Assembly: GCA_040326175.1 (NCBI GenBank)
Contig: JBEQLC010000001.1
Location: 1 to 25,672, forward strand
Direction: 5' to 3'
DNA length: 25,672 bases
From: Desulfobacteria bacterium
GTDB taxonomy: Bacteria; Desulfobacterota; Desulfobacteria; Desulfobacterales; C00003060
The translations under genes and the position numbers were made by a program. This document shows positions 7,778 through 23,438 of this stretch, piece by piece. The first letter of the stretch is position 1. Every line of letters begins with the position of its first letter. The notes under the pieces were generated by a model that did no database searches, had not been told where the DNA came from, and was given only the letters and a program-made list of their open reading frames with translations.

Positions 7778-8024
7778 AAGCCATTTCAAAACCCCATCTA
7801 ACGCTCGATGGCTGTGTTGAAAACCTGTTGTTTTGCTGCGCAAAACTTAAATCTAAGCGCCTAATCGCGCCCTTAAGTACTCGCTTCGCTTTGTACTTAA
7901 GGCCATCCCGCCAATGGCGGTCTGGCGGTTTATGCAAAATGCTCACATACTCCCGTGTATGCTGCGCTTTTTCATCGGCTTTCGCCTTGCCCTCGAACGC
8001 GATCTGAGGTTTTGCAATGGCTTC
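7777..8024. mobile_element. 248-bp MITE with 17-bp terminal inverted repeats and TA duplication
   Basis: GAAGCCATTTCAAAACC (7777-7793) matches the reverse complement of GGTTTTGCAATGGCTTC (8008-8024) at 16/17. TA lies at 7775-7776 and 8025-8026. There are several internal hairpins and no transposase. Confidence 0.88.
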
Positions 8025-13214: not shown

Positions 13215-13420
13215 TAACGTGGGCCGTTCGCTTCGCCCGGATGGGGTACCCCAAAAAGCTCATGAGGGCCGTTCCAAGGAGTTATGCAAAGGTGTCTCGC
13301 TGCATGCCAACATCAAGATAGAAAGCCGGGTCTGGGCTGAATCTAATTCGTGGTGTTCTTAAGGCGTGAGCTGCAAATCCCTGTACGCCATCGCGAGACT
13401 CAGGCGAGGCAGGCGGGAAC

Positions 13421-16907: not shown

Positions 16908-18128
16908 ATGTCAGATCCCCTGAAGGATAAGAATATTGTATTAGGCGTGTGCGGTGGGATCGCTGCTTACAAGGCCTTGGACCTTCTCAGGGTCTTTGTC
17001 AGAGCCGGAGCCCGAATCCGGGTGATTATGACCGGGGCGGCCCAGGCGTTTGTTGGCCCGACCACGTTTCAGGCTCTCTCCGGACATTCGGTATGGACCC
17101 AAATGTTTGGGGAGCAAGAAGGCGCACCCTTTCGACATATCGCATGGGCAGAAGAGGCCGATGCTGTTGTCATCGTGCCGGCCACTGCCAATATCATTGG
17201 CAAGATGTCCCACGGGATTGCAGATGATCCTTTGACCACCTTTGTCCTGTCGGTTCGAGCGCCAATCTTGGTCTGTCCGTCCATGAACGTTCACATGTAC
17301 GAAAACCGTCTCGTCCAGGACAACATTGAGAAGCTTGAGCGGACCGGCATCAAGGTGCTCCGTCCCGAAACCGGAGTACTCGCCTGTGGCGACGAGGGGC
17401 CAGGTCGGTTGCCAGATGTCGAGACGATAGCGGAAGAAGTTCGCTCACTGTTGTGTCCCAAGGATTTGGCTGGAGAGAGGGTCCTGGTAACTGCCGGGCC
17501 CACTCAGGAACCGATCGATCCCGTCAGGTTCATCAGCAATCCTTCTTCGGGCAAGATGGGATATGTGCTTGCGCGCGTTGCCCGGAGGCGGGGGGCGGAA
17601 GTCTCGTTGGTTAGCGGGCCTACAGTGCTTGCTGACCCTCAAGGCGTCAGGGTGATCCGGGTCAGGACAGCCGAAGAGATGTATAACGCGGTGATGGAAA
17701 CGGCGGAAGAAGCTACAATCATCGTAATGGCCGCTGCGGTATCAGACTGCCGGCCCGCCAGTCTCTTTGAACACAAGGTCAGGAAGGAGGAGATGGCGCA
17801 GGATCTACGTCTGGAGCAGACGGTTGATATTCTAAAGGTACTGGGGGAGAACAAGAACAGACAGATTCTGGTCGGTTTTGCTGCTGAAACTCGAGATCTA
17901 CAGGAAAGTGCCTGCGCCAAGCTGTCTGCCAAGAACTTGGATCTTATTGCTGCCAATCTAATCGGGCAGGCTGATTCAGGGTTTGGCTCAGACACCAACC
18001 AGGTAAGTCTTTTTTACAAGGACGGTCGCAAAGAGGCTCTGCCGCTTATGGACAAGGGAGCACTTGCAGAAGTACTATTCGACAAAGTCTTGGAGATTAA
18101 GAGAAAAGCGGATGACGGAAGCGATTAA
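16908..18128 (+). CDS. coaBC: Bifunctional phosphopantothenoylcysteine decarboxylase / phosphopantothenate-cysteine ligase
   Basis: GVCGGIAAYK, PATANIIGK, PSMNVHM, LACGDEGPGRL, VTAGPTQEPIDPVRFISNPSSGKMG, VGFAAET. Confidence 0.97.
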   Translation: MSDPLKDKNIVLGVCGGIAAYKALDLLRVFVRAGARIRVIMTGAAQAFVGPTTFQALSGHSVWTQMFGEQEGAPFRHIAWAEEADAVVIVPATANIIGKMSHGIADDPLTTFVLSVRAPILVCPSMNVHMYENRLVQDNIEKLERTGIKVLRPETGVLACGDEGPGRLPDVETIAEEVRSLLCPKDLAGERVLVTAGPTQEPIDPVRFISNPSSGKMGYVLARVARRRGAEVSLVSGPTVLADPQGVRVIRVRTAEEMYNAVMETAEEATIIVMAAAVSDCRPASLFEHKVRKEEMAQDLRLEQTVDILKVLGENKNRQILVGFAAETRDLQESACAKLSAKNLDLIAANLIGQADSGFGSDTNQVSLFYKDGRKEALPLMDKGALAEVLFDKVLEIKRKADDGSD

Positions 18129-18831
18129 AGCCTTCAATGAGAGTTCCACACAGCTCTTGCCTGAGATTCGAGAGGATCTGAAGGCTTATCTCCAATATAT
18201 GAAAGGATTGGGATATCAGGGTGTGGTCTTGTCTGAAGACTCTGTCAGGATCCTGGAACGCTGGAATAAAGGCGGAGTAGCAGAGACTCTGGACACGATT
18301 CAGGTGGATCTTGGCGCCTGCGAGAGGTGCAAACTCCACAAGGGGCGCAAACATATCGTTTTTGGAGTCGGGAATCCAAGGGCAAAGCTGGCTTTTGTGG
18401 GTGAAGGGCCGGGCCACGAAGAAGACATACAGGGCGAGCCGTTTGTAGGCAAGGCGGGTCAACTGCTTACTAAGATACTTCGGGCGATCGGATTGACCCG
18501 GGAGGATGTCTATATTTGCAACATCATAAAGTGCAGGCCTCCGGGGAATCGGAATCCTGAACCGGACGAGATCGCCGCGTGCATTCCTTTTCTCCGAAGA
18601 CAGCTGAGAGCTATAGGACCTGGGCTGATATGTGCCCTGGGCACCTTTGCGGCCCAAACACTTCTGGCGACCAAAACGCCGATATCTCGGTTGCGGGGCA
18701 ACTTCTATACTTATGAAGGTATTCATCTCCTTCCCACATATCACCCAGCTTTTCTTCTCCGAAATCCCGCAAAGAAGGCCGACGTGTGGGAAGATATGCA
18801 GAAGCTTCAGGAGGCATATGAAAAGACTTAG
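18112..18831 (+). CDS. Family 4 (Fe-S cluster) uracil-DNA glycosylase
   Basis: [40 protein letters not shown] and TYHPAFLLR. Start at ATG 18112, overlapping the coaBC end. Confidence 0.94.
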
Positions 18832-20254
18832 AAACCTTTACAAAGAATCCCCTTTTGTCCAATCTCTGCGTCAGACTCAGATTTTGGTCCTCAAAATACT
18901 AAAAGTATTCCTGCGGCCAAAATTTTCATCTTCCTTGACCTTGAACAAAATTGAACACCTTGTAAAGGTTTCTCCTGGACATGCACTTGCTGTATTTGCA
19001 TTGGCAGGGGTGCTGGTCTTTGCCTTTCCCCTGGCAGCCCAGGCTGCCAAAGGAGAGGTCTATGTGGTTGAAGTTTCTGGTACGATCAACCCGGGCTTGG
19101 CAGAGTATGTGATAAGAAACATTGAAAAGGCTGATGGGGAGGAAGCTGCCTGTCTCGTTATGCAGCTTGATACCCCTGGTGGGCTGGGCCTATCCATGCG
19201 TTCAATCGTCATGGCCATGCTGGCCTCGAAGATCCCTGTGGTCGTCTATGTATCGCCGAGCGGGGCACGAGCAGCCTCTGCCGGTGTGATGATCACCCTT
19301 GCGGCTGATATTGCGGCCATGGCTCCCGGCACCAATATTGGTGCGGCCCATCCGGTCAACCTCGGCCAAAAGGAGATGGACAAGACCATGGCCGAGAAGG
19401 TGGTCAACGACATGGTGGCCTACACCAAAAGCATTTCAGAAAAACGGGGTCGCAACAGCGAATGGGCGGAAAAGTCGATTCGGGAAAGTGTTTCCGTCAC
19501 AGAAAAGGAGGCCTTGGAACTCAAGGTTATTGACCTCATTGCTGAGGATTTGGACGATCTCCTCGAGAAGATCGATGGTCGAGAACTCAAGGAAAAGGGA
19601 ATTCTTCACACCAAAGGGGTTAAACGGGTGGTCCTTACTGAAAGCTTCAGGGACAAGATCCTTAAGACCATCAGCGACCCCAACATTGCGTATTTGCTCA
19701 TGATGATCGGTATGGCCGGGCTCTATTTTGAACTATCCCACCCCGGAACGATCTTCCCGGGGGTTATCGGCGCCATCTCTCTGATTCTGGCCTTCTTTGC
19801 ATTTCAAACACTGCCGGTCAACTATGCTGGAATCTTGCTGATCGCGGTTGCCCTCATCCTCTTCATCCTCGAGATGAAGGTGACCAGCTACGGTCTTCTG
19901 AGCCTGGGCGGCATCATCTCCCTCTTTTTGGGGTCCTTGATGCTGTTCCAGGGGCCCGGGCCCGAGATGCGCCTTTCCTGGCGTGTACTGATTTCCACGG
20001 TTGTCATGGTTTCCGGGTTCTTTGTTGTCGTGGCCGGCCTTGTGTTTCGTTCCCAGATATCCAAACCCCGAACGGGAGACAAAGGGTTGATTGGGGAGGT
20101 TGGCGTGGTCAGGGAAAGGCTTGCACCTGGAGGCAAAGTCTTTGTCCATGGGGAGCTTTGGAACGCCGAGGCTCGGGAGCCGATCGAGGCAGGCGCCAAG
20201 GTCCGCGTCACAGGTGTGGATAAGCTGGTTTTGAGAGTCGAGGAAGTTCGGTAG
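18818..20254 (+). CDS. nfeD: Long-form NfeD (ClpP-like serine protease domain + membrane domain + OB-fold)
   Basis: LDTPGG, VYVSPSGARAASAG, AMAPGTNIGAAHPV, ELSHPG, GKVFVHGELWNA. ATG 18818 follows GGAGG. The N-terminus is interrupted in frame by a MITE. Confidence 0.9.
   Translation: MKRLRNLYKESPFVQSLRQTQILVLKILKVFLRPKFSSSLTLNKIEHLVKVSPGHALAVFALAGVLVFAFPLAAQAAKGEVYVVEVSGTINPGLAEYVIRNIEKADGEEAACLVMQLDTPGGLGLSMRSIVMAMLASKIPVVVYVSPSGARAASAGVMITLAADIAAMAPGTNIGAAHPVNLGQKEMDKTMAEKVVNDMVAYTKSISEKRGRNSEWAEKSIRESVSVTEKEALELKVIDLIAEDLDDLLEKIDGRELKEKGILHTKGVKRVVLTESFRDKILKTISDPNIAYLLMMIGMAGLYFELSHPGTIFPGVIGAISLILAFFAFQTLPVNYAGILLIAVALILFILEMKVTSYGLLSLGGIISLFLGSLMLFQGPGPEMRLSWRVLISTVVMVSGFFVVVAGLVFRSQISKPRTGDKGLIGEVGVVRERLAPGGKVFVHGELWNAEAREPIEAGAKVRVTGVDKLVLRVEEVR
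18831..18972. mobile_element. 142-bp MITE inserted at the udg stop codon and inside the nfeD 5' end
   Basis: GAAACCTTTACAA (18831-18843) pairs perfectly with TTGTAAAGGTTTC (18960-18972). Internal hairpin AATACT-AAA-AGTATT (18895-18909). Left flank TA, right flank TC. Confidence 0.85.
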
Positions 20255-20314
20255 TCTATGGTTTTTCCGTTCGCCTTAGGATTGTTGCGGTGAACTCAAG
20301 GGATAAAGGTGTTA

Positions 20315-20401
20315 GAGTAGTTCTCATAAAAAGACTACTTCGGAAGCAATAAGATGCCTTACTGAGCTTGGATGCTGGAACATGGTTCTGGAGAATCACT
20401 A
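20315..20401. mobile_element. Degenerate 87-bp mini-element related to the 12890-13214 MITE
   Basis: TA|GAGTAGTTCTCATAAAA resembles TA|GAGTGGTTCTCAAAAA. The right end GGAACATGGTTCTGGAGAATCACTA|TA resembles GGAACATATTTTTGAGAAACGCTC|TA. Confidence 0.45.
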
Positions 20402-20451
20402 TAAGACACAGAAGATACAGCAGGGACCGTGGGGCGCTTGGGCATTAGAGA

Positions 20452-20480
20452 TTGACAATATGGTAGCGTTATCATATAGT
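20452..20480 (+). promoter_or_regulatory. Near-consensus sigma70 promoter
   Basis: TTGACA (20452-20457), 17 bp spacer, TATAGT (20475-20480). Confidence 0.75.
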
Positions 20481-20601
20481 ATAAGGTCATATCCAACGCA
20501 AAATAGGGAGTCGCTATAATCAAGGCAAGAATGTTTTAGGACCAATGTCAAACATTGCGGCCTGCCACGGAGCTGTACGGGTGACAAGGGAGACCTTGAT
20601 A

Positions 20602-20829
20602 ATGGCCCCTGATCAGCAAAACCTGACGCAAGTTATATGGGGTATTCTTTTGGTCGGAATGGGGGTCCTCCTTTGCGTCACTACACCGCATGCCTTGCGC
20701 GTATCAGCGGACTCCGCTTTTTTGAACTTTGCACGATACTTTATTGCAGTCCTCCTCATAGTCGCCGGTGCCAAGAAATTGTACGGGTTCTATTTTGCCA
20801 AGGACAAGGAACCCCCTTCGGGCGAGTAA
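20602..20829 (+). CDS. Small hypothetical membrane protein (2 TM helices)
   Basis: VIWGILLVGMGVLLCV and FIAVLLIVAGA hydrophobic segments. GGGAG RBS before ATG 20602. Confidence 0.7.
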   Translation: MAPDQQNLTQVIWGILLVGMGVLLCVTTPHALRVSADSAFLNFARYFIAVLLIVAGAKKLYGFYFAKDKEPPSGE

Positions 20830-20881
20830 GTCGGACATAAATTTGGAACCAAAACCTTTTGGCATGGAGATTTGACCTGTC

Positions 20882-23356: not shown

Positions 23357-23438
23357 GACCAAAATCTGAGTCTAACGCAGGCACTTTAGTGAAGCTTTGG
23401 CGCTGATTGGGCAAAAGAGGGCGTTTTGGAAAGGTCTC
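23357..23438 (-). mobile_element. Reversed half copy of the 18831-18972 MITE, overlapping the uvrB RBS and start codon
   Basis: 23357-23380 matches the reverse complement of 18866-18889 at 23/24. After an insert of about 24 bp, 23405-23438 matches the reverse complement of 18831-18864 at 26/34. Confidence 0.85.

Follow-up and report, generated by a model that had tools for sequence, protein, structure and literature searches.

An in-frame miniature transposon in the predicted signal-peptide region of nfeD in a Desulfobacteria genome

The udg-nfeD junction and its 142-bp insert

We analyzed a stretch of 25,672 nucleotides (the window) from a Desulfobacteria bacterium (assembly GCA_040326175.1, contig JBEQLC010000001.1), in which a transposable element of the miniature inverted-repeat type (MITE), 142 bp long, lies at the junction of two overlapping plus-strand genes, udg and nfeD. 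This stretch corresponds to contig C111 of a draft genome totalling 1.96 Mb over 368 contigs, and its close relatives are metagenome-assembled genomes of Desulfobacterales and Desulfobacteria, many of them from cold-seep or marine sediment. In the list of open reading frames (ORFs), udg extends from 18112 to 18831, with a provisional start at ATG 18112 and its TAG stop codon at 18829-18831. The product is a family-4-type uracil-DNA glycosylase, whose UDG domain (PF03167, E 8.7e-40, 136.5 bits) assigns it to the uracil-DNA glycosylase superfamily; its C-terminus, ...EAYEK(T/A) followed by the stop codon, is kept in relatives. The second gene, nfeD (18818-20254), encodes 478 amino acids including the MITE-derived codons. 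Long NfeD proteases of the NfeD1b type consist of an N-terminal ClpP-like domain, a membrane domain and a C-terminal NfeD OB-fold domain. All three Pfam profiles, PF25145 (NfeD1b_N), PF24961 (NfeD_membrane) and PF01957 (NfeD), matched above their cut-offs, and the orthologues of the genus are 73-89% identical. The two genes share 14 nucleotides (18818-18831), from the ATG of nfeD to the TAG of udg. This overlap is native, being conserved in relatives without the element, and reads ATGAAAAGGCTTAG at the empty sites of G018, G002, G043 and others. A Shine-Dalgarno-like AGGAGG, read from the sequence at 18809-18814, lies within the udg codons 3 nt before the nfeD ATG, and CAGGAGGC.TATG recurs in most relatives.

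The element occupies 18831-18972 on the plus strand and is supported by its inverted repeats, family copies, fold and covariation. Its terminal repeats of 14-15 bp (left 18831-18845, right 18958-18972; consensus ends GAGACCTTTGCAAAAC ... GTTTTGCAAAGGTCTC) form the tips of longer inverted-repeat arms (18830-18862 and 18941-18973) that are 79% complementary, with 13 contiguous Watson-Crick pairs from the tips; nearly all copies have 13 to 18 perfect terminal pairs. The element is small, dispersed and without a transposase gene, matching 12 times in the window's own genome, and the family was matched in 31 of the 37 genomes of the genus with up to 20 or more matches per genome. This bore out a preliminary description of the locus, made from the window alone, which had placed a repeated element of 142 bp with inverted ends inside nfeD. 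A parent insertion sequence was sought in the window's draft genome, the only genome searched, and no pair of family ends 1-2.5 kb apart was found there; insertion sequences rarely assemble in such drafts.

Forty further family copies were retrieved for a comparison of ends and flanks. The family ends are GAGACC... and ...GGTCTC, and fresh copies carry perfect 5-bp duplications directly against them (GAATC, GAAGC, AAATA, AAACT, AAAGC and GCTAT, with GAATA and GTTGC at two metagenome loci). The duplication is thus of fixed length and perfect in many copies, and the target sites show no preference for TA. These fresh copies rejected the TA, 2-bp target model of the preliminary description, in which the insertion measured 144 bp and 48 codons: the insertion unit is 142 + 5 = 147 nt and therefore adds 49 codons. 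From the element end and the 5-bp rule of the family, the left target copy is placed at 18826-18830 (ACTTA, GCTTA in relatives). The right copy (18973-18977), placed by the difference of 147 nt from empty sites, is decayed; it reads TCCTG here and TCACA, TCGTA, GCCAA or ATTCA in relatives.

Comparison of 32 udg-nfeD junctions established the empty sites. Between fixed protein anchors the filled junction measures 259 nt against 112 nt in empty relatives and is exactly 147 nt longer. Where the element is absent, every junction already shows ATGAAAAGGCTTAG.. or a sequence very near to it, with TAG as its last three bases (two junctions have TAA instead). The native sequence resumes in G001 as AGAAGTGCAC after the element plus 5 nt, and this puts the point of insertion between A and G of the TAG. 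Excision of 18831-18977 gives ...CTTAGACAT... and restores CTTAGA; udg then still ends ...EAYEKT-stop, and NfeD begins MKRLRHALAVF...PLAAQA, followed by AKGEV. The G at 18831 is physically the G of the udg TAG, as had been noted before. However, because both family ends begin with G and the native base after TA is also G, the stop codon is kept automatically, so that the element neither creates nor alters it and the deduced UDG protein is the same with or without the insertion. The empty site reading TAC, with udg running on for about 30 more codons, was a product of the 2-bp excision model, as was the apparent completion of the stop codon, and the proposal that one insertion reshaped two overlapping genes is not supported. 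A short textbook signal peptide without the element had been foreseen correctly: in the aligned junctions the relatives that lack it do not share the long N-terminus and have a leader of 27 residues (MKRLR...AxA).

We considered whether the repeat had been misjoined into the junction during the assembly of a fragmented metagenome-assembled genome, since the draft comprises 368 contigs and this repeat family breaks assemblies. However, genomes assembled independently have the same element at the same nucleotide, one of them (G001) as a single-contig chromosome, and protein records of other origin show it too; moreover, Logan contigs of two other runs (records 5 and 24) cross the left junction without differences. 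An artefact is hardly credible on this evidence, and the identity and boundaries of the element can be taken as established.

A sister of the window's genome stands apart (L033, G044:C267). In length its junction equals an empty one exactly. Both proteins are very close to those of the window except in the udg tail and the NfeD leader, which diverge strongly. Replacement of the allele by recombination and precise loss followed by rapid drift are both possible.

Reading frame and the NfeD leader

The element is free of stop codons in the nfeD frame, as the preliminary description had stated, and this is its single stop-free frame of the six. Among 25 intergenic full-length copies, 14 are open in that frame, compared with 0 to 5 in each of the other five. 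Almost all length changes at the junction keep the frame. Relative to empty sites, the full MITE adds 147 nt in G000 (the window's genome), G001 and G005, and a MITE adds 144 nt in G013. Shorter forms are a footprint of 9 nt in G041 (the right tip GGTCTC plus a flank common to G013), a right-end remnant of 36 nt in G006 and G003, and an insert of 15 nt in a strain of run X1, where an in-frame internal deletion of 132 nt left GAAA+GGTTTC (with a loose end at 18834). Other repeats add 138 nt in G017 and 144 nt in G009, and further inserts measure 96 nt (G042), 111 nt (G011 and G021) and 27 nt (G012). The inserts of all the numbered genomes named so far, from G000 to G012, are stop-free from the overlapping ATG. 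The list is completed by G023 (169 nt, out of frame) and G007 (330 nt, a nested insert with stops), each with its own downstream nfeD start. At least nine of ten informative changes are multiples of three (binomial P ~4e-4), a count that leaves out the intrinsic 147 nt, the stop-containing G007 and the 15 nt of G051, which lie in the udg tail; the changes include four independent in-frame partial deletions of the MITE.

In G042 (L035) and G007 (L017) a different insert, of 96 nt, comes after the udg stop; at its end the start region is present once more in diverged form (ATGCGTGTACTTAG versus ATGAAAAGGCTTAG). In G007 a further AT-rich, repeat-bearing insert of 234 nt is nested within it and brings stops, so that nfeD there uses the second ATG.

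The leader that receives the insert has the features of a Sec-type cleavable signal peptide, judged by hydropathy, charge and inspection in 28 orthologues: a basic n-region, a hydrophobic core of 10-20 residues and small residues at -3 and -1. The core (about A56 to L72), with the A-Q-A site, is encoded at 18983-19045 on the plus strand and has a hydropathy maximum of 2.2-2.5 at residues 55-58. Cleavage is predicted after A76 (19045|19046), and the AxA motif followed by AKGEVYV is conserved in relatives. Core and AxA are conserved in all orthologues and lie entirely downstream of the insert; variation is confined to the n-region, which has about 6 residues at its shortest and about 56 when the MITE is present. 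Its 49 residues include nine K/R against two D/E (+7 net), and their maximum 19-residue Kyte-Doolittle mean of 1.15, compared with 2.2-2.5 in the leader core, predicts no extra membrane segment. On this value the MITE peptide was rejected as a membrane helix.

Selection was estimated from the ratio of nonsynonymous to synonymous differences (pN/pS). Mature NfeD is under strong purifying selection whether or not a lineage has the MITE: its values were 0.07-0.15, also in the comparison of G001 with G005, both carriers. The MITE-coded peptide gave 0.56-1.17, and intergenic copies read in the same frame a median of 0.85. Selection on the peptide was therefore rejected, its pN/pS being neutral. What counts, on this evidence, is the frame and not the residues, as would be expected if a passenger sat in a leader that is translated and afterwards removed.

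Taken together, we put at about 0.72 the probability that the MITE is read in frame as 49 extra residues of the n-region of the NfeD signal peptide, as a tolerated passenger that leaves the mature protein unaltered. We propose that the non-autonomous transposon entered nfeD behind nucleotide 13 of the gene, splitting the udg stop codon between A and G, where the leading G of the element would have left the TAG and the UDG protein unchanged. The 147 nt, in the sole stop-free frame, would keep nfeD open from the original ATG 18818 with its AGGAGG 3 nt upstream, and the n-region would lengthen from about 6 to about 56 residues while remaining strongly positive. We infer translation through the insert, export and cleavage; cleavage after A76 would presumably remove the added residues with the signal peptide and leave mature NfeD the same. 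The element would contribute no functional domain. Its tolerance at this site would follow from the lack of intergenic DNA and from the near absence of constraint on the first codons of the cleaved leader. An effect of the insert on NfeD export or topology, suggested in the preliminary description, is possible.

Several observations weigh against this interpretation. The four orthologous open copies, taken by themselves, are weak evidence for a maintained frame (P ~0.1 against a background of 56%), and the RNA-labelled runs X18 and X19 matched only pieces of other family copies and nothing unique to the junction. The Shine-Dalgarno spacing of 3 nt is short, and the conservation of AGGAGG is not independent evidence because the same nucleotides encode udg residues. 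A stable hairpin (-38 kcal/mol) that starts 13 nt past the start codon could hinder initiation at ATG 18818. Furthermore, start shifting does occur. G001 and G005 gained an in-frame ATG near the right end of the element, and a second gene has lost its original ATG in G017 and G018, so that a MITE-derived insert must supply the start.

These last points, with the separate downstream nfeD starts of G007 and G023, would also fit a start of nfeD inside or after the MITE. Two in-frame TTG codons in its right part (18935 and 18941, within 18935-18943, plus strand) are candidate alternative starts; either would give a leader of normal length (MNKIEHLVKVSPGH plus the core) and leave the frame from ATG 18818 unused or abortive. 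However, the TTG codons have no Shine-Dalgarno motif upstream and lie in paired parts of the hairpin, whereas nothing is lost of the native start: the ATG, the AGGAGG before it and the overlap that couples nfeD to udg are all preserved. An unused frame would also free the length changes at the junction, yet these are stop-free and predominantly multiples of three. We therefore regard an internal start as unlikely.

Structure, age and possible co-option of the element

The element folds as one long hairpin (dG -38.4 kcal/mol, z -5.7). Its stems covary across 24 family copies, with double changes at 12 of the 36 predicted pairs, and the copies in nfeD keep pairing in the same way (pairs 3/140 and 10/133 in the window, 10-11/132-133 in G013). 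The internal stems covary too, beyond the terminal repeats, as at columns 45/100 (AU:10 GC:10) and 57/88 (AU:15 GC:9). Between species the MITE body differs by 13-22%, compared with 45-61% at the synonymous sites of nfeD, and the copies resident in nfeD thus diverge 2-4 times more slowly than those sites.

The fold, the kept pairing and the slow divergence raise the question of whether the element has been co-opted and is kept by selection. The hairpin, as RNA or DNA, could regulate nfeD by attenuating initiation, by offering an RNase III site or by uncoupling the gene from udg; alternatively, the long basic n-region could modulate targeting. Intergenic copies, however, show the same covariation and conservation, which makes these a property of the family; requirements of transposition, hairpin-templated repair or gene conversion may underlie it, and the G013 copy is 93-94% identical to others inside and outside its genome although its target duplication is decayed. 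In addition, the element was deleted at least four times, the G044 site is of empty length with nfeD still conserved, and the encoded peptide evolves neutrally. Co-option is accordingly an improbable explanation, and we retain that of a tolerated passenger.

Structural constraint, hairpin-templated repair, gene conversion and repeated insertion at the same nucleotide are all possible causes of the slow divergence and kept pairing. The decayed duplications argue for old insertion events, while the G013 copy, being close to the consensus, points to a younger insertion or to gene conversion. The MITE tree has bootstraps of 12-30% and the two-gene species tree is weak at depth; neither separates one insertion from several.

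Repeats in nfeD and in other exported proteins

The start of nfeD has received other repeats. The 144-nt insert of G009 belongs to a different family, matched 22 times in that genome and not at all in four others, and the 138-nt insert of G017 is built of other repeats frequent in G017 and in its sister G018, where the site is empty. These two inserts are in frame, free of stops and situated in the opening ~22 nt of nfeD. As udg and nfeD leave no intergenic DNA, an insertion would spare both genes only if it fell in the few codons that separate the udg stop from the core. We read this hot spot as the outcome of a selection filter; a target preference may also contribute to it or account for it.

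We then searched for the MITE peptide in proteins with HMMER over 1.84 billion representatives and with a word index over 5.8 billion clusters. Most matches were short spurious ORFs over intergenic copies. Besides nfeD, three intact genes have an in-frame copy located after the start codon and before the hydrophobic core. One, present in G007, G015 and G046, encodes an exported protein of 330 residues (MK + element + KPRASYL..core..SHS), the GAAGC duplication being perfect; its site is empty in G048 and in 20 or more other genomes. The second encodes a TPR lipoprotein (MN + element + NRVKIG..LFAC; GAATA duplication), whose start overlaps an upstream MlaD-like gene, and the third a lipoprotein-like protein (MKPDISL + element + RRPSIW..LSTGC; GTTGC duplication). 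All four intact in-gene cases, including NfeD, are thus in the n-regions of signal peptides.

Three other hits were rejected as intact in-gene cases. The ORF call of a TatD hit (P0155) was extended through a copy in the 5' untranslated region, the usual MLIDSHAH start lying downstream; an SBP_bac_5 hit (P0076) is a truncated fragment of 189 residues, and a WecB-like hit (P0096) is a disrupted gene. Among P0001-P0150, dozens of public 'proteins' of 55-190 residues are intergenic copies, and the TatD gene was called about 70 residues too long.

On balance we lean, by a small margin over even odds, towards a more general view: n-regions would be the only coding positions where copies of this family survive, the start of nfeD (its first ~22 nt) a site at which three or more repeat families land recurrently, and cleaved leaders a safe harbour for selfish DNA in bacterial genes, the hairpin being kept by concerted or compensatory evolution while the peptide drifts.

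The gene of the 330-residue protein showed two further features. A near-consensus promoter-like sequence, TTGAAA-N17-TATATG, read by eye, ends about 7 nt before its ATG throughout the genus (L167 in G007:C267, L168, L169; the orthologue in the window's own genome is at G000:C343:5860-6357), and the mRNA may be leaderless or nearly so. In G018 and G017 (L172, G018:C37; L173, G017:C3) it is this gene whose native ATG is destroyed (..CAATAGGAAGC..), with a rearranged MITE-derived insert after it. An open route into the signal peptide exists only from within the insert, beginning at an ATG or at a TTG in its LNKIE part. Judged from the sequence, DNA of repeat origin has here donated a start codon.

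Other traces of the family lie elsewhere in the window. A partial, reversed copy is found at 23357-23438 on the minus strand (a 24-nt match at 96% identity), and the family terminal repeat that ends at 23438 sits just upstream of the next gene; further terminal-repeat matches occur at 8009-8024 (GTTTTGCAATGGCTTC) and 13281-13296 (GTTATGCAAAGGTGTC). A second MITE subfamily of ~200-240 bp with the ends GAGACCTTTGCATAAC is present in the same genome, for instance at C66:9588-9788, C88:9450-9671 and C368:15964-16205. Downstream of nfeD, positions 20255-20881 contain no SPFH/stomatin gene; the sole ORF there (20545-20829, 94 residues) has no Pfam match, and the next gene encodes a PilB/GspE-type ATPase.

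Comparison with known systems

The comparative evidence from this locus documents that a mobile repeat can persist for long inside a gene if it has landed in the disposable leader of an exported protein. The locus constitutes a natural allelic series, comprising the site without insert, the site with the full insert, four remnants of in-frame deletion and inserts from two other repeat families, and the range of n-region lengths, from 6 to 56 residues, suits the study of Sec tolerance to length and charge. For annotation, it is relevant that gene callers extend or mis-start ORFs over the stop-free repeat and that the insert is not to be taken for a new domain.

In-frame fusions of MITEs are established for Rickettsia palindromic elements (RPEs), QMITE, ERIC, BOX and the Anabaena MITEs (PMC10969869, PMC5896051). 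RPEs (Ogata et al. 2000), as far as they are summarised in PMC10969869, insert in frame into protein genes that stay functional. The parallel with them, already drawn in the preliminary description, is apt as a functional analogy only, not as one of sequence. Like the RPEs of that summary, the present element is a palindromic repeat of ~100-150 bp with a stop-free frame and adds a peptide without known function. Unlike them, it has the classical anatomy of a MITE (terminal inverted repeats and a 5-bp duplication), resides in a Desulfobacterales host and is mostly intergenic, and its intact in-gene cases are in the n-regions of cleavable signal peptides and not in the bodies of mature proteins. 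This is a new family in a new host, and RPE-like in-frame behaviour was already known. The element also resembles QMITE1/2 of Coxiella (PMC5896051) and the intragenic ERIC, pneumococcal BOX and Anabaena MITEs (PMC10969869) in its strong RNA folding and its position at gene ends or in frame, where such elements donate residues or stop codons. The reports on these elements describe 3'-end extensions, donated stop codons and insertions in hypothetical ORFs (PMC5896051, PMC10969869); at udg-nfeD, unlike there, no meaningful stop codon is donated. Neither PMC5896051 nor PMC10969869 mentions signal peptides. Searches of the available literature turned up no relevant work on signal peptides that contain MITEs or RPEs.

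Long n-regions can be compatible with Sec export. Leaders of 50 residues or more, with an N-terminal extension placed before an ordinary n-h-c signal, occur in autotransporters, as extended signal peptide regions, and among other Sec leaders whose n-region is long. The extensions of these leaders are conserved motifs with a proposed function and do not derive from mobile DNA. The extension of NfeD, unlike these, is repeat-derived, evolves neutrally and has been lost repeatedly.

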